DNA from: Kayfunavirus AN17P1
Direction: 5' to 3' (one strand)
Sequence record: OZ035755.1
Length of the DNA: 39,656 nt
A program made the position numbers and the translations under genes. Below, one piece after another: positions 395 to 19,668 of the stretch; position 1 is the stretch's first letter; every line of letters starts with the position of its first letter. The notes under the pieces were generated by a model that saw nothing but the letters and a program-made list of their open reading frames with translations, was not told where the DNA came from and searched no databases.

Positions 395-832
395 ATGCTC
401 GAACTTTTACGTAAAGCAATCCCGTGGCTGGTTGCAGGACTCCTGTTCTGTTCTGGCTACTGGGTGGCAGACAATAAGTGGGAGGCGAAGGTAAACAATG
501 AGTACATCACGAAACTTGAGGCACGAGAGAATCAACGGGCTGCTGTCCAAGGTGAAATCAACAAAGTGTCAGCCGAGTGGCAAGACAAGATGTCCGCGCT
601 GGAAGGCTCTACTGATAGGATTATTGCTGACCTTAACCGCGATAACAAGCGGCTGCGCGTCCGAGTCAACACCTCAGGTCTCACCGAGTCAGATGTCAGT
701 AGATGCTTCCCTAATGGTAGAGTCGAACTACACCCAGAAACTTCTAAAAGTCTTATCCGATTAACTCAGGAGGCAGACCTTAAGGAGAAGGCGCTTCAGG
801 ACACAATAAGGAGGCTCCAAGGTGTTAAGTGA
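395..832 (+). CDS. gene 18.5: i-spanin (Rz-like, T7 gp18.5 homolog)
   Basis: Translation MLELLRKAIPWLVAGLLFCSGYW... resembles T7 gp18.5 N-terminus (MLEFLRKLIPW...) as I recall it; N-terminal TM segment; SD GAGGAGG 7 nt upstream of ATG 395 (the track's ATG 380 lies inside the SD). Confidence 0.8.
   Translation: MLELLRKAIPWLVAGLLFCSGYWVADNKWEAKVNNEYITKLEARENQRAAVQGEINKVSAEWQDKMSALEGSTDRIIADLNRDNKRLRVRVNTSGLTESDVSRCFPNGRVELHPETSKSLIRLTQEADLKEKALQDTIRRLQGVK
498..764 (+). CDS. gene 18.7: o-spanin (Rz1-like lipoprotein, T7 gp18.7 homolog) embedded in +1 frame of 18.5
   Basis: 88-aa ORF wholly inside the i-spanin gene in another frame; lipobox-like LTAITSGC followed by Pro/Ser-rich region; same embedded arrangement as T7 18.5/18.7. 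Confidence 0.75.
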   Translation: MSTSRNLRHERINGLLSKVKSTKCQPSGKTRCPRWKALLIGLLLTLTAITSGCASESTPQVSPSQMSVDASLMVESNYTQKLLKVLSD

Positions 833-1259
833 TTACTACAAAGTGGACCCGGCTAGTCCATCCGGTCTGGTCTCCGTTAGGACTGGAAAGCCTGTGGGGA
901 CATTAAGTCGGATGGGATATTGGATAGTACAGACACGAAGTCTAGGCAGTAAGCGGGCCCATCGTGTGATATGGGAACTAACCAATGGTCCTATACCGCA
1001 TGGTATGCAAATAGACCACATCGACAGGAACCCTAGCAATAATACCTTAAGTAACTTACGGCTCGTTACTGCCGCTGAAAACACTTGGAATACTGGTAGC
1101 CATTATGACTCTAAGACAGGAGTGAAGTGCGTTACCCGTCACCAGAATGGTTATAGGATTCAGGTTAAACGCGGGAATGCCTATATGCGAACAACACGTC
1201 CCACTTTAGAGGAGGCTATCGCTGTCCGGGACCTAATGCTGGAGGGACTATATGTCTAA
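822..1259 (+). CDS. HNH homing endonuclease (HNH plus AP2-like DNA-binding region), 145 aa
   Basis: Motif [41 protein letters not shown] typical of phage HNH endonucleases; GTG start with SD AAGGAGG; overlaps the 3' end of 18.5 and the 5' end of terminase; T7 has no gene here. Confidence 0.8.
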
Positions 1260-3018
1260 GAAAACACCCGCTGAAAGACAGGCAGAAATGGTCCAAAGGA
1301 TGAGGGACGACTTCGTGTTCTTCATCTTCGTTCTCTGGAAAGCACTAAGTCTTCCGGTTCCAACCCGCTGCCAGATAGATATGTGTAAGAAGCTGGCTGC
1401 TGGGGATAATCGCCGCTTCATCCTTCAGGCGTTCCGTGGTATTGGCAAGTCGTTTTTGACCTGTGGCTTTGTGGTCTGGAAGCTATGGAATAACCCAGAC
1501 TTGAAGTTCATGATTGTGTCGGCCTCAAAGGAACGAGCCGATGCGAACTCCATCTTCATCAAGCGAATCATCGACCTCATGCCTCAGCTTCGGGAACTCA
1601 AACCTAAGCAGGGGCAGCGAGATGCGGTTATCAGCTTCGACGTTGGACCAGCCAAGCCAGACCACTCACCTTCGGTTAAGTCCGTTGGTATCACTGGTCA
1701 GTTGACTGGTAGTCGTGCTGACATCCTGATTGCCGATGACGTGGAGGTTCCGAACAACTCAGCGACTCAGGCTGCACGAGACCGTCTATCAGAGCTTGTG
1801 AAAGAGTTCGACGCTATCCTGAAGCCGGGAGGTACGATCATCTATCTGGGTACTCCTCAGAACGAGATGACCCTGTACCGTGAGCTGGAAGGTCGTGGGT
1901 ACACCACTACTATCTGGCCCGCTCGTTATCCACGCGACAGGAAGGACTGGCAGTCTTACGGCGACCGTCTGGCTCCTATGCTTCAGGCAGAGCTGGAAGA
2001 GGACCCTGAGTCCTTCTACTGGCGTCCGACTGATGAAGTACGCTTCGATGATACGGACCTGAAGGAACGTGAGCTGTCCTACGGTAAAGCTGGCTTCGCT
2101 CTACAGTTCATGCTTAACCCGAACCTGAGTGATGCCGAGAAGTACCCTCTTAAGCTCCGTGACCTTATCGTAGCCGACTTGGACCCAGCGTCCAGCCCAA
2201 TGGTCTACCAATGGTTGCCGAACCCTCAGAACAAGCGTGAGGACGTTCCTAACGTTGGACTCATGGGTGACTCGTACCACACGTATCAGACTGTAGGTTC
2301 TGCCTTCAGCTCATACACCCAGAAGATTCTGGTCATTGACCCTAGTGGTCGTGGTAAGGATGAAACTGGATATGCGGTACTGTACCAGCTCAACGGCTAC
2401 ATCTTCGCTATGGAAGTTGGTGGCATGCGTGGTGGTTATGAAGACTCTACGCTGGAAGCCTTGGCTAAGATTGGTCGTAAGTGGAAGGTCAACGAGTACG
2501 TCATTGAGGGTAACTTCGGTGATGGTATGTACCTTGAGTTATTCAAGCCTGTAGCGGCCCGTATCCATCCTTCGTCTGTAACTGAAGTGAAGAGTAAGGG
2601 TCAGAAAGAACTCCGCATCTGTGACGTTCTGGAGCCTATCATGGGGTCTCACCGACTTATCGTTAACGCTGCTGCTATAGTCCAAGACTACCAGTCTGCC
2701 TCTGATAAGGATGGTGTTCGTAACCCTATCTACTCTCTCTTCTATCAGATGACACGTATCTCTCGTGAGCGTGGAGCCTTGGCACACGATGACCGACTTG
2801 ATGCGCTGGCTATCGGTGTACAGTTCTTCGTTGAGTCTATGGCTAAGGATGCTAGCAAAGGCGAACGTGAAGTCACTGAGGAATGGCTGGAGGAACAGAT
2901 GGAGAACCCACGGAAAGGCTTCGAGTCCATCCACACTGAGTTCTGGGACAATGGGGTCCGGGTAACTCACGATACGGACGACGAGCTTGGACTAGGGGCA
3001 TACGTTACGTTACACTAG
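1252..3018 (+). CDS. gene 19: Terminase large subunit (T7 gp19 homolog), 588 aa
   Basis: Length and position match T7 gp19 (586 aa); Walker A-like GIGKS and ATPase/nuclease-type motifs (LIADDVEVP); strong SD GGAGGGACTAT before ATG. Confidence 0.95.
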
Positions 3019-3699: not shown

Positions 3700-4100
3700 A
3701 GTGTCGCCTGACCTACGGTCCTTGACCTACAGTAGCTGCCACCTACAGTATTCGATGAGTTTTGGACCAAAAGTTTGAGACCACATCTCACAGTTCAAGA
3801 ACCTCAAGTCTCCCCATAGGCCCTCTTTCAGTCCAGACCAAAGGCCCTACCCCAGTCTATCATAAGGTTAGACCGATGGTCAAGACTTCAGGTCAACGAT
3901 AGGTTGTGGCTATGGCTTAGGGAAGGACGATAGGTAGGGACTATTGGTCTGTCTTTGAGTCTCTATCTGTATCAGACCTTGAGTCACTACCTACAGTCTA
4001 ACTACCTACAGTCTAACTACCTACAGTCTAACTACCTACAGTCATCGACCATCGGTAATGCCGCTACCTACAGTCAGAGACCTACGGTTAATAGACACAA
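3700..4100. repeat. Genome terminus region: putative direct terminal repeat flanked by CCTAC(A/G)GT short repeats
   Basis: TCTCACAGTTCAAGAACC...CCCCATAGG at 3786 resembles the T7 (TCTCACAGTGTACGG) and T3 left-end sequences as I recall them; repeated GACCTACGGT / CACCTACAGT motifs on both sides mirror the CCTAAAG arrays flanking the T7 terminal repeat; no CDS. Repeat length cannot be read from a collapsed assembly. Confidence 0.5.
3986..4044. repeat. Tandem array, about 3.9 copies of 15-bp unit ACTACCTACAGTCTA
   Basis: Exact copies at 3986-4000, 4001-4015, 4016-4030 and a partial copy at 4031-4044. Confidence 0.9.
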
Positions 4101-9429: not shown

Positions 9430-9453
9430 CCTAAACTATCACTATAGGATTAG
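9430..9453 (+). promoter_or_regulatory. Phage RNAP promoter (phi1.1-like)
   Basis: CCTAAACTATCACTATAGGATTA; consensus match. Confidence 0.75.
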
Positions 9454-9492
9454 ACTAAAGGTCATGACTCAAAGTCGTGGCCTTCATGATTA
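9451..9492 (+). promoter_or_regulatory. Conserved stem-loop, putative RNase III site (R1.1-like)
   Basis: AAGGTCATGACT / AGTCGTGGCCTT arms (9458-9469, 9473-9484) with two G-U pairs and a 3-nt loop; same family as 294-346 and 16631-16677. Confidence 0.4.
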
Positions 9493-13015: not shown

Positions 13016-13470
13016 TGGCCCAATGGTCTGCAAAACGGGGGCACTCTGTGGGTGCCTACCGCTCTGGACTTGAAGCCAAGAACCAGCAGTGGCTGGAACA
13101 GAACGGCGTCAAAGCGGAGTACGAAAGCCGTTATATCAACTATGTGATTCCGGCTTCCGACCACAAGTACACACCAGATTTTATCCTTCCCAACGGTATC
13201 ATCGTGGAGACCAAAGGTATCTTCGATAGTGATGACCGTAAGAAGCACCTTCTGGTACGAGAACAGCACCCAGAGTTAGACATCCGGTTCGTGTTCTCAA
13301 GTTCACGCTCCAAGCTATACAAAGGGTCCCCGACCACGTATGGCGCATGGTGCGAAAAGAACGGCTTTAAGTTTGCCGACAAGTTTATCCCTGTTGAGTG
13401 GCTGCGAGAGGCGACTGTACGTCTGCCTTCAGGTATACTCATTCCCAAGAAGAAAGGAGTTAAGAAATGA
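13015..13470 (+). CDS. gene 3: Endonuclease I, Holliday-junction resolvase (T7 gp3 homolog), 151 aa
   Basis: YVIPASDHKYTPDFILPNGIIVETKGIFDSDDRKKHLLVREQHPELDIRFVFSSSRSKLYKGSPTTYGAWCEKNGFKFADK is near-identical in pattern to T7 gp3 as I recall it. Confidence 0.92.
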   Translation: MAQWSAKRGHSVGAYRSGLEAKNQQWLEQNGVKAEYESRYINYVIPASDHKYTPDFILPNGIIVETKGIFDSDDRKKHLLVREQHPELDIRFVFSSSRSKLYKGSPTTYGAWCEKNGFKFADKFIPVEWLREATVRLPSGILIPKKKGVKK

Positions 13471-13958
13471 GCCAGAAGTTTAAACTGTTAGTAGATATAT
13501 ATGGTTGGCCTCGTGGGACTATCGTTACCAAGTGTAAGAAGGACCCAGCTCCGTTGCCTACCCTTACCCTAGTTGAGTGCCAGACTCCAGGCAAATACAA
13601 ACATGGGCCTAACGGCTTCAATACTCAGCCTAAGGGCATGTGGGGAGCATGGATTGCTGACAGATATCTTGAGGAAATCAAACCAGAAGAGGAACTCACT
13701 GGTGTACAGACCACTCAAGTCCTTCCAGCTTCGAGCGTACCTCCTGTGACAGTGAAACGCGAAGTCCTGACAATCGACAAGATTGGGGTGGGCCAGACGT
13801 TCATCGTCCACGGAAAGCCTGACGAAGTTTACGTGAAGATCAGCAACTCACACGTCTTCAACCATAAGCGTCTCCAGATGCATACCACGGACGCACAACG
13901 CTTCACCCAGCATCTGAATCTAGTGGTTGTAGAATTGGTGGTGTACAATGGTAAGTAA
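13467..13958 (+). CDS. Hypothetical protein, 163 aa, inserted between endonuclease I and lysozyme
   Basis: Strong SD AGAAAGGAG before ATG; ATGA overlap with the gene 3 stop; T7 has no gene here; no family recognised. Confidence 0.6.
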   Translation: MSQKFKLLVDIYGWPRGTIVTKCKKDPAPLPTLTLVECQTPGKYKHGPNGFNTQPKGMWGAWIADRYLEEIKPEEELTGVQTTQVLPASSVPPVTVKREVLTIDKIGVGQTFIVHGKPDEVYVKISNSHVFNHKRLQMHTTDAQRFTQHLNLVVVELVVYNGK

Positions 13959-16630: not shown

Positions 16631-16677
16631 GTCTAGACTCAAGGTCATTCACATCGAGTGGCCTTTATGATTAGACT
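16631..16677 (+). promoter_or_regulatory. Conserved stem-loop, putative RNase III site upstream of the DNA polymerase gene
   Basis: GTCTAGACTCAAGGTCATTCACATCGAGTGGCCTTTATGATTAGAC; third member of the family at 294-346 and 9451-9492. Confidence 0.4.
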
Positions 16678-16693
16678 AAACGGAGGATTAACC

Positions 16694-18865
16694 ATGTTTG
16701 ACCTTAAGAGTATCTGGGGTTCTGACATCGAGACCAACGGTCTCCTTGATACAGTCTCCAAGTTCCACTGTGGGGTCCTGATTAACGCCGAGTCGAATGA
16801 GACCCTTAAGTATGGGGTAGCTCCGATGGTCGGTATCGTCGGTGGCTTCAAAGAGTATGTACAGAAGGTGGAAGAAATTGCTGCAACGCCTACGGGTATG
16901 CTGGTCTTCCATAACGGTATCAACTATGACGTCCCGGCTATTGACAAGCTGAAGCGTTTGTACTTTGGGAAACGATTTAACTTCCCGAAACACAAGATGA
17001 TTGATACCTTGGTGCTGGGCCGCTTGATGTATCCAAACATTAAGTTCTCAGACATGGGCGCGGTGAAAGCTGGTCGTCTGCCCCATAAGATGATGGGACG
17101 CCAGTCTCTTGAGGCTTGGGGCTATCGTCTAGGTGAGATGAAGGGTGAGTACAAACACGATTACGTTGCCAAGTGCAAGGCTGAAGGTATCGAATATAAG
17201 GCTGGGGACGAATGGTTGTTCCCATCTCAGGAGATGCTAGACTATAACGTTCAAGACGTTGTGGTCACACTGGCGTTGTTCAAGAAGTTCCTGACTGACA
17301 AGTATTACTTCCAGTCTGAACAGCTCGCTTTCGACCAGATTTATGCGTTGCGTCTGGAACATGATGCTGCGTGGACCTGTGCGAAGATGGAACGTAACGG
17401 ATATCCGATGAACACCGAGATGGTCGAAGGATTATATCGTGAACTCACCGTCAAACGTGCAGAGTTGTTGGACAAGCTGCGTTCGACTTTCGGTAGCTGG
17501 TACGCACCAAAGGGAGGCAAGGAGTTCTTCAAGCACCCACGGACAGGCAAGGACCTTCAGAAGTATCCGCGAGTCGTGTATCCTAAGGTCGGGTCAGTAT
17601 TCAAGAAGCCGAAGAACAAAGCTCAACGCTTAGGTATTGAACCTTGTGAACGCGATACGCGAGACACGATGGAAGGAGCACCGTTCACGCCAATCACTTA
17701 CGTTGAGTTTAATCCGGGAAGCGGAGACCACTTAGCGAAAGTCTTGATGGAGCGTGGTTGGGAGCCTGTGGACTTCACTGACACTGGGAAACCTGTAGTT
17801 GATGACGAGACGTTAGAACACGTTAAGTTACCAGACGCAGAGGCTCAGGCTTGCGTAGAGCTGGTCCGTGAGTATCTGGTAGTCCAGAAGAGAATCGGGC
17901 AGGCTGCTGAAGGTAAGAACGCATGGTTGAAACTTGTAGGTCCAGACGGACGTATGCACGGTTCAATCAACCCTTGTGGAGCAGTAACAGGACGTGCGAC
18001 CCATAGTTCACCAAACATGGCTCAGGTCCCGGCTAACGGTGCTCCGTATGGTGAGACTTGCCGTGGTGCTTTCGGTGCAGCGTGGAACAAGAAGGACGGT
18101 AAGCCAGACCCTTGGATTCAAGTAGGCGTGGATGCTTCAGGTCTTGAGCTTCGTTGTCTGGGGAACCGAGCGGCTCCGTTTGATGGTGGAGATTATGCGA
18201 AGACTGTGGTCGAAGGTGACATACACTGGGCAAACGCAGTCAACGCTGGGTTAGCACCTAACGTCCCACGCGACAAGTCGAGCCATGACCACGATGCTTT
18301 CCGTAATAACGCCAAGACGTTCATCTATGCGTTCCTGTATGGTGCAGGGGCCGCGAAGATTGGACTGATAGTTGGTGGTGGTAAGAAGGAAGGTGCGGCC
18401 CTGATGAAGAAATTCATTGAGGGTACACCAGCTATCAAGGACCTGCGAGAGGCTGTGCAGAACACGCTCATCTCAGAGTCGAAGTGGGTAGATGGTGAGA
18501 ACATCGTGAAGTGGAAACGTCGCTGGCTGAAAGGTCTGGATGGTCGCAGAATTCACATCCGGTCACCACACTCAGCACTTAACGCCCTACTTCAGGGTGA
18601 TGGTGCGGTTGTCTGTAAGCACTGGATGGTACTGACTGAGAAGAAACTTGAAGAGGCTGGTTACGGTAACGGATGGGACGGTGACTTTGCGCTAATGGCT
18701 TGGATTCACGATGAATTGCAGATAGCGTGCCGTACTCAGGAGATAGCAGAAGATGTCGTCCGTATTGCTCAAGAGGCGATGCGCGAGGTCGGACGCTTCT
18801 ATAACTTCAAGTGTGAACTTGATACGGAGGGTAAGATTGGACCAACGTGGAAAGAGTGTCATTGA
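16694..18865 (+). CDS. gene 5: DNA polymerase (T7 gp5 homolog), 723 aa
   Basis: Start MFDLKS... with SD ACGGAGG; collinear T7 gp5 motifs as I recall them (DIETNGLLDTVSKFHCGV, NVQDVVVT exonuclease site, AKTFIYAFLYGAG, HDELQIACR). Confidence 0.96.
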   Translation: MFDLKSIWGSDIETNGLLDTVSKFHCGVLINAESNETLKYGVAPMVGIVGGFKEYVQKVEEIAATPTGMLVFHNGINYDVPAIDKLKRLYFGKRFNFPKHKMIDTLVLGRLMYPNIKFSDMGAVKAGRLPHKMMGRQSLEAWGYRLGEMKGEYKHDYVAKCKAEGIEYKAGDEWLFPSQEMLDYNVQDVVVTLALFKKFLTDKYYFQSEQLAFDQIYALRLEHDAAWTCAKMERNGYPMNTEMVEGLYRELTVKRAELLDKLRSTFGSWYAPKGGKEFFKHPRTGKDLQKYPRVVYPKVGSVFKKPKNKAQRLGIEPCERDTRDTMEGAPFTPITYVEFNPGSGDHLAKVLMERGWEPVDFTDTGKPVVDDETLEHVKLPDAEAQACVELVREYLVVQKRIGQAAEGKNAWLKLVGPDGRMHGSINPCGAVTGRATHSSPNMAQVPANGAPYGETCRGAFGAAWNKKDGKPDPWIQVGVDASGLELRCLGNRAAPFDGGDYAKTVVEGDIHWANAVNAGLAPNVPRDKSSHDHDAFRNNAKTFIYAFLYGAGAAKIGLIVGGGKKEGAALMKKFIEGTPAIKDLREAVQNTLISESKWVDGENIVKWKRRWLKGLDGRRIHIRSPHSALNALLQGDGAVVCKHWMVLTEKKLEEAGYGNGWDGDFALMAWIHDELQIACRTQEIAEDVVRIAQEAMREVGRFYNFKCELDTEGKIGPTWKECH

Positions 18866-18896
18866 CCATCGAACCCAGACCCTACGCTTCCATACC

Positions 18897-19172
18897 ATGC
18901 CTACCGGATGTATCGTCTGCGTGTCCCACAAGAGGAACCAAGATGGGTACTTCCGGTACTCCATGGGAAGCTACAGGAAGGGCAACAAGTTCGCCTTCAT
19001 GTTCCACCGATGGGTGTGGGAGCAGAAGCGCGGACCTATACCAAATGGCTACGAGATAGACCATTTATGCTTGAACCGTGGGTGCTGCAGCATAGAGCAT
19101 CTACAGTGTATTCCAAAACGCGAACACGTCATTAAGACGAACCGTGAGCGCAAACTTGTTAAGAAGGAGTAA
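18897..19172 (+). CDS. HNH endonuclease, 91 aa from ATG 18897
   Basis: HRWVWEQKRGPIPNGYEIDHLCLNRGCCSIEHLQCIPKREH is an HNH motif with Cys zinc ligands; the in-frame ORF opens at 18753 inside the polymerase gene, so the start is uncertain and no clear SD precedes 18897. Confidence 0.65.
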   Translation: MPTGCIVCVSHKRNQDGYFRYSMGSYRKGNKFAFMFHRWVWEQKRGPIPNGYEIDHLCLNRGCCSIEHLQCIPKREHVIKTNRERKLVKKE

Positions 19173-19177
19173 CCACA

Positions 19178-19462
19178 ATGGCTATGACCAAACGTATGCG
19201 AGTAAGTTTTGACCTGAAGATGGTTGTTAGCTCAAAGGAAGAAGAGACCATGTGTTGCCAACTAGCTGAGATTACTAAAGCCTACGCTGGTGGTGAGAAG
19301 CTGGACGGACTTCAGTTGGCTATGGTCAAAGCAGCTATTGAGTTAGGACCTGAGTCTGCTCTTGAGCTGGCACTGAAGAAGGCCCTCAAGGAGGTGATTG
19401 TGGAGGGGTTCGATGGAGACCAGTTCAATGTCTCCAACTTCCGCTTCGAGGTGAAACGATGA
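19178..19462 (+). CDS. gene 5.5: gp5.5 homolog (H-NS-binding protein family), 94 aa
   Basis: N-terminus MAMTKRMRVSFD versus T7 gp5.5 MAMTKKFKVSFD as I recall it; SD AAGGAG. Confidence 0.8.
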   Translation: MAMTKRMRVSFDLKMVVSSKEEETMCCQLAEITKAYAGGEKLDGLQLAMVKAAIELGPESALELALKKALKEVIVEGFDGDQFNVSNFRFEVKR

Positions 19463-19668
19463 GTGAATACTTACGGGTCCTAGCGGCCATTAAGTCCTGC
19501 CCGAAGACCTTCCAGTCCAACTATGTGCGCAACAACGCTGCACTTGTGGCTGAGGCTGCGAGTCGTGGACATCTAAGCTGCCTGTCTATGGATGGGCGTA
19601 ACAACGGTGCGTGGGAGATTACAGCTGCTGGCACCAAATTCCTGAACCAACACGGAGGATGCCTGTGA
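19459..19668 (+). CDS. gene 5.7: gp5.7 homolog, 69 aa
   Basis: MSEYLRVLAAIKSCPKTFQSNYVRNNAALVAEAASRGHLSCL... is near-identical to T7 gp5.7 (MSDYLKVLQAIKSCPKTFQSNYVRNNASLVAEAASRGH...) as I recall it. Confidence 0.88.
   Translation: MSEYLRVLAAIKSCPKTFQSNYVRNNAALVAEAASRGHLSCLSMDGRNNGAWEITAAGTKFLNQHGGCL

Follow-up and report, generated by a model that had tools for sequence, protein, structure and literature searches.

A probable TTG start inside the DNA polymerase gene for the gene 5.3-type HNH endonuclease of Kayfunavirus AN17P1

Introduction

In the genome of Kayfunavirus AN17P1 (OZ035755.1; the whole stretch of 39,656 nucleotides that was analysed is called the window here), a reading frame for an HNH endonuclease stands directly behind the DNA polymerase gene, and the question is where its translation begins. 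In the ORF listing this frame runs from 18753 to 19172 on the + strand, opens with an ATG, encodes 139 aa and contains EIDHLCLNRGCCSIEHL. The polymerase gene ends with the TGA at 18863-18865, and the HNH frame, which is +1 relative to the polymerase frame, therefore opens 113 nt inside it. A sequence-only reading of the window had noticed this overlap, and also that the first ATG after the polymerase stop (18897) has no obvious SD. Both points hold: the 20 nt preceding ATG 18897 have no anti-SD complementarity (+0.5 kcal/mol). The kind of gene is already known, namely an HNH endonuclease of the gene 5.3 type. Full-text literature searches found no experiment on any protein of the gp5.3 family, and gp5.3 of phiYeO3-12 and SH2 is listed as a homing endonuclease, with TAAGGAGGAtttATG (PMC4925675).

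Results

The window protein matches Pfam HNH_3 (PF13392; E=1.9e-19, 69.5 bits against a cut-off of 24.8, and so above the curated gathering score) and PHROG phrog_1872 (E=3e-26), which bears out the earlier statement that the HNH motif is clear. Its alignment with T3 gene 5.3 covers query residues 5-102 at 82.7% identity (E=6e-52), and the gene order 5 / 5.3 / 5.5 / 5.7 is common to the window and T3. The placement of the gene by the sequence-only reading, directly after the polymerase gene and at the gene 5.3 position, is thus upheld. By sequence similarity and position, the gene is assigned as the orthologue of T3/phiYeO3-12 gene 5.3 in a Kayfunavirus (T7-like) genome. The features of the locus are listed in Table 1. 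The likely start of the polymerase gene (ATG 16694) is preceded by an SD, GGAGG (-9.5 kcal/mol), and the resulting 723 aa equal the length of the annotated SH3 and Pipis polymerases. On the other side, the counterpart of 19178..19462 is labelled gene 5.5 in the records of relatives, and its SD consists of the two sense codons before the HNH stop codon and is a copy of the ancestral polymerase terminus. A scan for phage promoters gave none between 14636 and 20653.

Table 1. Features at the junction of the DNA polymerase gene, the HNH gene and gene 5.5 in the window
Feature	Position	Strand	Remarks
DNA polymerase gene (T7 gene 5 homologue)	16694..18865	+	likely start ATG 16694, stop TGA 18863-18865; ORF list
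SD GGAGG	18826..18830	+	6 nt upstream of TTG 18837, inside polymerase codons ACG GAG GGT
Proposed full HNH gene	18837..19172	+	111 aa, TTG start, stop TAA 19170-19172; overlaps polymerase gene by 29 nt, +1 frame
11-codon leader D H R T Q T L R F H T	18864..18896	+	behaves as translated sequence
First ATG after polymerase stop	18897..18899	+	Met21 of the 111-aa form; rival start, 91-aa product
Second in-frame ATG	18963..18965	+	rejected start; used in SH3 (RefSeq), Pipis, TM1 and SD6 records
HNH_3 catalytic core	18999..19130	+	Pfam match, residues 35-78 of the 91-aa form
Catalytic-core residues	D75-H76 19059-19064; H88 19098-19100; H97 19125-19127	+	
Ser85 codon AGC	19089..19091	+	substitution private to the window; alignment column nearly invariant
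Gene 5.5 SD AAGGAG	19164..19169	+	duplex energy -8.3 kcal/mol
Gene 5.5 homologue (H-NS binding)	19178..19462	+	right-hand border of the insertion; Pfam Phage_T7_55 weak match

T3 gene 5.3 (AJ318471, CAC86286) and gp5.3 of phiYeO3-12 and Citrobacter phage SH2 occupy the same site, from gene 5 to gene 5.5, and share with the window protein the HNH_3 core, the Cys pattern and the N-terminal TLRFHxMPTGC. The junctions differ, and two types can be told apart. In type A (T3-type), found in about 97 of 116 phage records, the polymerase TAA is followed by GGAG(G) and then by the ATG of a product beginning MGGVATLRFHxMPTGC. Type B, which comprises the window and about 19 others, is without this ATG and SD, and no ATG, GTG or TTG occurs from the polymerase stop to 18897; an SD and ATG of the gene's own directly after the polymerase stop (MGGVA...) are lacking in the window and in 17 type-B relatives. 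The type-B-specific junction measures 16 nt, against 27 nt in the T3 type, and the polymerase 3' haplotypes of the window and the T3 type are 56-76% identical across the final 250 nt. The window gene is a junction variant of the T3 gene 5.3 family and not a separate family.

The type-B orthologues (T147P5, SH3 YP_009292492, 22664BS1 QZI78470, MopsHU1 BFH10235, Pipis and EPr2; 91-99% protein identity) have the same junction, leader, SD and TTG as the window. The window differs from them in having Ser85 for Asn, and its stop comes earlier, directly after KKE rather than after KKECH, a feature common only to T147P5 and CtuP_B1. An exact-pattern metagenome scan for type-B haplotypes added three, all identical to known ones; the other 16 matches were unrelated. 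The database records disagree on the type-B gene, which is given as 113, 93, 89 or 71 aa, left unannotated, or replaced by an antisense ORF. The antisense ORF annotated in UFJF_EcSW4 and CtuP_B1 was treated as spurious, and the other sense frames were rejected as coding (pN/pS >1).

The 11 codons between the polymerase stop and ATG 18897 can be used to ask whether translation starts upstream of this ATG. Over 10 haplotypes the leader has 13 polymorphic sites, 10 of which, CTA/TTG and CGC/AGG among them, leave the amino acid of the HNH frame unchanged (binomial P about 1e-4 to 8e-4). The leader pN/pS is 0.14 in the HNH frame, compared with 1.2 and 2.8 in the other frames. Within the TLRFHT segment all eight polymorphisms are synonymous (pN/pS 0.03), and gene conversion from type-A alleles might in principle account for part of this variation; the type-B-specific leader codons (-11 to -7) alone show a weak constraint (pN/pS 0.33). 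Directly at the border of homology the polymorphisms can be arranged as a series of single steps, which argues for purifying selection within type B itself. It can also be seen that TLRF aligns with a hydrophobic-x-hydrophobic N-terminal strand that is present in all homologues, and the AlphaFold model places a strand (E18-20) within the leader. As judged from these substitution patterns, the 11 codons evolve as coding sequence under purifying selection in the HNH frame.

The only conserved start upstream of ATG 18897 that is preceded by an SD is TTG 18837. The anti-SD duplex at this codon has an energy of -10.0 kcal/mol, equal to that of the best genes of the genome, the bona fide genes of which range from -7 to -13 kcal/mol. 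TTG 18837 is kept in 17 of 17 type-B relatives and the preceding GGAGG in 16 of 17 (TM1 has AGAGG), a conservation that is inseparable from polymerase coding constraint and shared ancestry, because the HNH-less relatives with the same polymerase 3' haplotype (L031, L032, L036 and Penshu1) keep both SD and TTG. HNH-less group II relatives have CGAAG in place of GGAGG. The 27-nt overlap gives no independent support to the TTG start, since all five of its polymorphisms are synonymous for the polymerase and non-synonymous for the HNH frame. The PHROG profile match covers residues 8 to 110 of the 111-aa form. The annotators of MopsHU1 (a Morganella phage) picked the TTG start; most automatic gene callers prefer ATG 18897 or ATG 18963. 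The sequence-only reading had named an upstream non-ATG codon overlapping the polymerase gene as one option, and with the leader under purifying selection and an SD-preceded TTG at 18837 this option is now the favoured one. Taken together, the above results suggest, with moderate confidence, a free-standing homing-type HNH gene, orthologous to gene 5.3, whose translation most likely begins at TTG 18837. The N-terminal sequence relevant to the predicted upstream start is MDQRGKSVIDHRTQTLRFHTMPTGC; a TTG-initiated product would open with Met-Asp-Gln.

Other upstream candidates were rejected or are unlikely. The ATG at 18753, which opens the listed ORF, is preceded, at a distance of 10 nt, by AGGAG (-7.4 kcal/mol); this ATG is replaced by AAG in TM1, KM02 and R1, and L006, EcL30g, SD6, KM02 and R1 have in-frame stops behind it (6 relatives affected in all), so that the ORF start given in the sequence-only reading does not stand. 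GTG 18813 and TTG 18819 are conserved without an SD (+1.9 and -0.2 kcal/mol) and are unlikely starts. ATT 18861, which overlaps the polymerase stop, is ACT in TM1, SD6 and R1, has a weak SD and is rejected. A TTG at leader codon -5 occurs only in Pipis, L006, KM02, R1 and SD6, the window having CTA, and it is not a general start.

The main rival to TTG 18837 is ATG 18897 itself, from which a 91-aa protein would be made independently of an SD or by re-initiation after the polymerase UGA 31 nt upstream, the leader being an untranslated relic of type A. Bacterial ribosomes are able to re-initiate close to a stop codon, at distances up to a few tens of nucleotides, and low expression would suit a homing nuclease. 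This codon is the first ATG past the polymerase stop, it is kept in all type-A and type-B relatives, and it was picked by annotators or gene callers in the 22664BS1 and EPr2 records and for proteins P0047, P0050 and P0060. However, it lacks an SD, and its Met is internal in the T3-type relatives, 11 codons past the annotated start; distant homologues have Leu or Thr at the Met21 position. An untranslated relic would leave the codon-periodic synonymous variation of the leader unexplained, as well as the loss of the family-wide N-terminal strand. RNA structure gives no help either: the fold of 18800-18940 is no better than that of shuffles (z=0.76), around ATG 18897 or as a means of presenting a start signal. 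A start at ATG 18897 is therefore rather unlikely, though it deserves to be kept in mind.

The protein features bear on whether the copy in the window is functional at all. When 43 homologues were aligned, H76, H88 and H97 proved invariant. By profile alignment, which spans I-HmuI residues 30-82 including the catalytic D-H pair, D75/H76 align with I-HmuI D74/H75; H88/H97 may occupy the positions of I-HmuI N87/N96, an assignment made by spacing only. The Cys cluster of the window protein consists of C78, C83 and C84. Position 85 is Asn in at least 90% of the family (CCN[IV]EHL), and this Asn is kept in T147P5 (99% identical) and in every other type-B relative; with Ser85, the window thus lacks one of the nearly invariant motif residues, and its copy may be impaired. 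The AlphaFold model of the window protein has a pLDDT of 83.7, and its best PDB match by Foldseek is I-HmuI (1u3e; probability 1.0, TMq 0.50). A His-Cys box of the I-PpoI type (PF05551) was considered and rejected (22.0 bits against a gathering score of 27; Foldseek I-PpoI E=0.25).

It might be supposed that the window copy is a decaying, non-functional remnant which has lost its start signals, carries N85S and yields no active protein. In keeping with this, the canonical SD and ATG are gone, the Ser at position 85 is found in this genome only, KM02 (a stop) and SP7 (a frameshift) are decayed relatives, and the gene is absent from the annotation in several records. Against it, the ORF of the window is intact, D75, H76, H88, H97 and the cysteines are all kept, and N85S is a single conservative change. 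Moreover, the body of the gene has a pN/pS of 0.06 over 16 distinct type-B sequences, which indicates purifying selection on the junction type in general. Decay of the window copy therefore seems improbable.

A fusion of polymerase and HNH protein, produced by a programmed +1 frameshift close to the end of the polymerase frame (CAU UGA C behind a purine-rich stretch, resembling prfB), would account for a translated leader that lacks its own start codon. The HNH frame is +1 to the polymerase frame and open over the last ~70 nt of the polymerase gene in all type-B relatives, and AAAGAG-UGU-CAU-UGA-C superficially resembles the prfB site. But tRNA-His on CAU/CAC is unable to re-pair on AUU/ACU in the +1 frame, and re-pairing is the defining requirement of a prfB-type shift, so that the site does not belong to this class. 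Besides, the P-site codon varies among relatives (CAT or CAC), AAAGAG makes a weak SD-like element (-3.3 kcal/mol), an ordinary SD with TTG stands 26 nt upstream, and a fused Pol-HNH ORF occurs in no relative. Programmed frameshifting as the route to the HNH protein is extremely unlikely; a low-abundance Pol-HNH fusion that would arise if ribosomes shifted by +1 within the final ~70 nt of gene 5, and would tether the nuclease to the replisome, is very unlikely as well.

Finally, a start at ATG 18963 (69 aa), although used in the SH3, Pipis, TM1 and SD6 annotations and in gene call P0058, is scarcely credible, as it would delete the invariant C25, H31, K32, N34 and D36-R40 (SHKxNxDGYFR) block, homologous to the DNA-binding sheet of I-HmuI, the 22 codons upstream of it (codons 1-22) have a pN/pS of 0.047, and its SD is weak and misplaced (-3.7 kcal/mol).

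Discussion

The comparative evidence points to a TTG start overlapping the polymerase gene, against the start in RefSeq (SH3). The preferred reading is a 5'-truncated homing-nuclease gene that was likely rescued by an SD and a TTG silently written into the polymerase coding sequence. The gene lacks its own promoter and is transcribed together with the polymerase gene from the phage promoter at 14636. In type B the usual SD and ATG of the family after the polymerase stop are missing, and initiation would take place at TTG 18837, with SD and start codon both written into the final polymerase codons. In the T3 type, by contrast, the gene has its own GGAG(G) and ATG after the polymerase TAA (MGGVA), and the window has neither and probably uses a TTG inside the polymerase gene. 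The first ~12 residues of the 111-aa product would be an arbitrary, disordered tail, and residues 16-20 (LRFHT) would restore the N-terminal beta-strand of the family. If this is true, expression of the HNH protein is tied to, and throttled by, translation of the polymerase, and the locus is a small, clean example of a selfish nuclease that is without its own translation signals and is expressed via signals in an essential neighbour. The importance is mainly one of annotation: this junction variant occurs in about 19 deposited Kayfunavirus genomes, the records of which conflict. The known picture of HNH homing endonucleases is unchanged by this gene.

The protein is predicted to combine an N-terminal sheet like that of I-HmuI with a Cys-rich HNH core (D75, H76, H88, H97), and it is probably a nuclease. 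I-HmuI, a nicking homing endonuclease of the HNH class from Bacillus phage SPO1, shares with it the N-terminal DNA-binding sheet and the D-H pair, and both genes are associated with a phage DNA polymerase gene. However, the identity is only 19%; I-HmuI has 174 aa, is encoded in an intron and possesses a C-terminal helix-turn-helix domain that is missing in the window protein. In addition, I-HmuI has N87/N96 where the window protein has H88/H97, and it lacks the Cys cluster, which is probably a structural zinc site.

The distribution of the insert was compared among relatives. It is present in only 32 of 224 related records and absent from SH4, Penshu1 and 13 IMG/VR relatives. In HNH-less relatives the polymerase gene and gene 5.5 are directly joined through TAATG; an example of the junction, from the SH4 or Dev2 type, is ...TGGAAGGAGTGTCACTAATGGCT.... 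The right junction in most type-B relatives, AAGGAGTGTCACTAATGGCT, is identical to the junction of polymerase end and gene 5.5 in HNH-less phages and duplicates the ancestral polymerase terminus, and the copy at the left junction differs from HNH-less genomes by silent changes (AAG to AAA, CAC to CAT, TAA to TGA). The last ~250 nt of the polymerase gene form a haplotype linked to the HNH type. The sporadic presence, the linked polymerase 3' haplotype and the two decayed copies fit a homing element, and the intact copies are under selection. We infer that the HNH protein may cut HNH-less genomes near the junction of the polymerase gene and gene 5.5, and that the gene would, through recombinational repair, then spread together with its own ~250-nt polymerase 3' haplotype; each HNH variant would thus travel with its own polymerase 3' end.

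The window has another HNH gene at 822..1259 (CR44b gene 3.8A type; PF13392, E=6.7e-21), as the sequence-only reading had recognized. It is free-standing, adjoins an essential gene (large terminase) and occurs in 13 of 260 related records. Both HNH genes are sporadic among close relatives, which agrees with the repeated invasion proposed earlier. The accompanying claim of two different HNH families fails at the level of Pfam, both being PF13392, and holds for lineages: 822-1259 belongs to phrog_99 and the 5.3-type gene to phrog_1872. On these profile assignments, the two genes are placed in the same Pfam family and in different lineages. Their proteins are 36% identical over a 45-aa core only, and the 822-1259 protein has a canonical H-N-N motif and no Cys cluster, whereas the 5.3-type protein is Cys-rich.

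Identity of the HNH protein

The window comprises the complete genome, in circularly permuted form, of a T7-like phage of the genus Kayfunavirus, and its HNH region is matched best by Kayfunavirus T147P5 (99.3%). In the ORF listing, the polymerase ORF is closed by TGA at 18863-18865, and the +1-frame ORF under study codes for ...EIDHLCLNRGCCSIEHL...; the ATG codons of this frame are those at 18753, 18897 and 18963. The HNH motif claimed from the sequence alone was confirmed by Pfam HNH_3 (E=1.9e-19; 69.5 bits against a cut-off of 24.8) and by PHROG phrog_1872 (E=3e-26), whose profile alignment begins at residue 8 (numbering from TTG 18837). ATG 18897 is the first after the polymerase stop and had been described as having no obvious Shine-Dalgarno (SD) sequence; anti-SD pairing upstream of it is indeed absent (+0.5 kcal/mol, on a scale where well-defined genes of this genome reach -7 to -13 kcal/mol). 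Since the ORF, stop, ATG, SD and HNH profile data agree, that observation was correct as written.

A close homologue was detected by tblastn in 116 phage records, including T3 gene 5.3 (82.7% identity). The T3 record has the gene order 5, 5.3, 5.5, 5.7, and homologues of genes 5.5 and 5.7 follow the HNH gene in the window. The gp5.3 proteins of phiYeO3-12 and SH2 (110 aa) are given as homing endonucleases with the RBS TAAGGAGGAtttATG (SH1-SH5 paper, PMC4925675). The gene is of a known kind, already with annotated orthologues.

An AlphaFold model was built with 43 homologues as input (mean pLDDT 83.7). Among PDB structures, Foldseek ranked I-HmuI, an HNH homing endonuclease, first (probability 1.0, TMq 0.50), with I-PpoI a weak second. 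In a profile search, SHKxNxDGYFR...HR...IDH aligned to I-HmuI residues 30-82; D75 and H76 are the counterparts of catalytic D74 and H75, and H88 and H97 may, by their spacing, occupy the positions of N87 and N96. Four cysteines (C25, C78, C83 and C84) vary little or not at all among homologues and suggest a structural zinc site. The His-Cys-box model of Pfam scored 22 bits, below its cut-off of 27; therefore the protein was not classed there.

Features of the window discussed in the text
Feature	Coordinates	Strand	Remarks
HNH ORF, gene-5.3 type	18753-19172	+
Start candidate ATG	18753	+	AAG in three relatives, stops after it in five; rejected
Start candidates GTG, TTG	18813, 18819	+	no SD; unlikely
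Start candidate TTG	18837	+	GGAGG 18826-18830, 6-nt spacer, -10.0 kcal/mol; favoured
Start candidate ATT	18861	+	ACT in TM1, SD6, R1; rejected
Counterpart of antisense ORF	~18882-19100	-	annotated in two relatives
Gene 5.5 homologue	19178-19462
Gene 5.7 homologue	19459-19668
Second HNH_3 endonuclease gene	822-1259	+	free-standing, 145 aa, phrog_99, CR44b gene 3.8A type
Rz-like spanin gene	380-832
Large terminase gene	1252-3018
~40-nt element	298-339, 9451-9492, 16634-16673		after gene 18; after RNA polymerase gene; immediately ahead of DNA polymerase gene
15-nt tandem array	3986-4043		perfect, ~4 copies, non-coding, downstream of terminase gene
CTACCTACAGTC motifs	4032-4088, 3723-3753		kindred to the array
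ORF	13467-13958	+	163 aa, between endonuclease I and lysozyme genes

Two arrangements of the polymerase/HNH junction

The junction was aligned in 25 relatives and fell into two arrangements. Type A (T3, ZG49, pO91, KN1-1 and the remaining tblastn matches beginning at query residue 5 or later; ~97 of the 116 records) has the polymerase TAA, GGAG(G/A), 4-7 nt, and then ATG GGA GGY GTN GCA ACN YTN CGN TTY CAY AAG/ACN ATG CCT, giving the N-terminus MGGVATLRFH(K/T)MPTGC. Type B (~19 records) comprises the window, T147P5, SH3, Pipis, 22664BS1, U8, MopsHU1, EP1, EcL30g, TM1, SD6, KM02, R1, EPr2, SP7 and L006. Here the polymerase terminates in CA(T/C) TGA, and a 16-nt segment with the stop (TGACCATCGAACCCAG) replaces the 27-nt stop, SD and ATG segment of type A; homology starts again at ACC CTA CGC TTC CAT. 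Between the polymerase stop and 18897, the window contains no ATG, GTG or TTG.

Evidence for translation of the leader

The 17 type-B sequences of the leader (the 33 nt, or 11 codons, ahead of ATG 18897) were reduced to 10 haplotypes with 13 polymorphic sites, of which nine are third positions of HNH-frame codons. First positions account for three changes, and two of these are also synonymous, CTA/TTG (Leu) and CGC/AGG (Arg), the sole kinds of synonymous first-position change in the genetic code. The pN/pS ratio is 0.14 in the HNH frame and 1.2 and 2.8 in the other two; it is 0.03 for the six codons TLRFHT and 0.06 for the gene body. For 13 random changes, at least 10 synonymous ones would be expected with a probability of 1e-4 to 8e-4. 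Type-A alleles could supply such variants through gene conversion, and at codons -6 to -4 (counted back from ATG 18897) the variable sites lie within a few nt of the type-A homology border. This location and the haplotypes, which form a series of single steps, count against conversion and fit in-place evolution under protein-level constraint.

As independent evidence, all 23 homologues in the alignment, the most distant at 45% identity, have a hydrophobic-x-hydrophobic element ~8 residues ahead of an invariant G-C. In the AlphaFold model, residues 18-20, directly before Met21, form a beta-strand, and residues 1-12 are disordered. Because of the leader substitution pattern, the conserved N-terminal element, the start of the PHROG alignment and the modelled strand, ribosomes very probably enter the HNH frame upstream of 18870.

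Choice of the start codon

The frame is open across all type-B genomes only from ~18792. ATG 18753, with which the sequence-only reading opened the ORF, is ruled out by its state in relatives (see table). ATG 18963, which the records of SH3 (RefSeq), Pipis, TM1 and SD6 annotate as the start, is likewise ruled out: invariant residues would be cut off, and the preceding 22 codons show a pN/pS of 0.047. A +1 frameshift of the prfB kind, at CAU UGA C, is very unlikely, the required re-pairing being absent and the P-site codon variable.

An upstream non-ATG start overlapping the polymerase, proposed earlier as one option, is favoured by the leader constraint and by TTG 18837, which is present in 17/17 type-B genomes, its GGAGG in 16/17. 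Its SD strength matches that of the best genes of this genome, and the MopsHU1 annotators (one team) picked the same codon. The GGAGG arises from two silent polymerase positions (ACG + GAG), which read ACC + GAA in the HNH-less group II genomes. The case is weakened by HNH-less genomes, among them Penshu1, L031, L032 and L036, which carry the same polymerase haplotype including SD and TTG. The 27-nt overlap lends no independent support, because its polymorphisms (5/5) are silent for the polymerase and replacements for the HNH frame. Use of ATG 18897 alone, via SD-independent initiation or re-initiation, would leave the leader constraint unexplained, and we consider it unlikely. A start somewhere upstream of 18897 is probable, and, with somewhat less assurance, the start problem is resolved in favour of TTG 18837 as the likely codon.

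No significant RNA structure was found around the start region. No phage promoter was found between 14636 and 20653; therefore the HNH gene is co-transcribed with the polymerase.

Signature of a probable selfish element

Coverage of the HNH insert is confined to 32 of 224 related records. In HNH-less group II (SH4 and 12 IMG/VR contigs) the polymerase terminus is ...TGG AAG GAG TGT CAC TAA TGG CT, its stop overlapping the gene 5.5 ATG, with AAGGAG as the 5.5 SD. In most type-B genomes, exactly this string (21 nt, GAAGGAGTGTCACTAATGGCT) closes the HNH ORF (...KKECH*) at its 3' end and opens gene 5.5. The left copy, the true polymerase end, is AAA GAG TGT CAT TGA, its changes being silent and abolishing SD and TAATG. 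The cassette is therefore bordered by an imperfect 17-nt duplication of the polymerase terminus. Over its final ~250 nt the polymerase gene falls into haplotypes that go with HNH state: group II shares 92-100% identity with the window in most 50-nt bins further upstream, versus 72-86% over this stretch, where type-A Kayfunaviruses show 56-76%. In KM02 the HNH gene is interrupted by an in-frame stop (YSM*SYRK), and in SP7 it is frameshifted by a 1-nt deletion; either these homing-endonuclease genes are in decay or the two sequences contain errors. Judged from sequence comparison, sporadic presence, duplication, linked flank and decayed copies fit a homing element co-converting its flank, and the HNH protein presumably cleaves and homes.

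In Penshu1 (L003, 966-1070), L031, L032 and L036 (after position 1450) the polymerase ends as in type B (CAT TGA C), but the place of the HNH gene is taken by an unrelated ~100-nt spacer that includes hairpin-forming sequence (CAGCAC..GTGCTG). The spacer is either the scar of a deletion or another insert.

Second HNH gene and other elements

The second HNH gene lies between the spanin and large terminase genes, overlapping both by a few nt, and was found in 13 of 260 related records. Both HNH genes belong to PF13392, so the idea of two HNH families does not hold at the Pfam level. They are only 36% identical over 45 aa and fall into separate PHROGs (phrog_99 and phrog_1872); with their sporadic presence, this indicates two independent invasions by different lineages, and the suggested repeated invasion stands.

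Ser85 of the window (AGC, 19089-19091) is Asn in at least 90% of the family and in all other type-B relatives, T147P5 included. The right junction, GGAG TAA CCACA ATG, gives an earlier stop (KKE*), otherwise seen only in T147P5 and CtuP_B1. Database records treat the HNH gene inconsistently: UFJF_EcSW4 and CtuP_B1 annotate an antisense "hypothetical protein" (both 622-840, minus strand) and not the HNH gene. This antisense ORF was rejected, substitution patterns being coding in the sense HNH frame only.

The ~40-nt element (TAGACTCAAGGTCATT ... AGTGGCCTTTATGRTTA; repeat families D16 and D18) occurs at three positions, which correspond to those of T7 RNase III sites R18.5, R1.1 and R4.7. The ORF at 13467-13958 had no match in the Pfam search and matched over its full length phrog_16385, a family without assigned function. 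The 15-nt array (unit ACTACCTACAGTCTA) probably belongs to a region of genome ends or terminal repeats in the permuted assembly.
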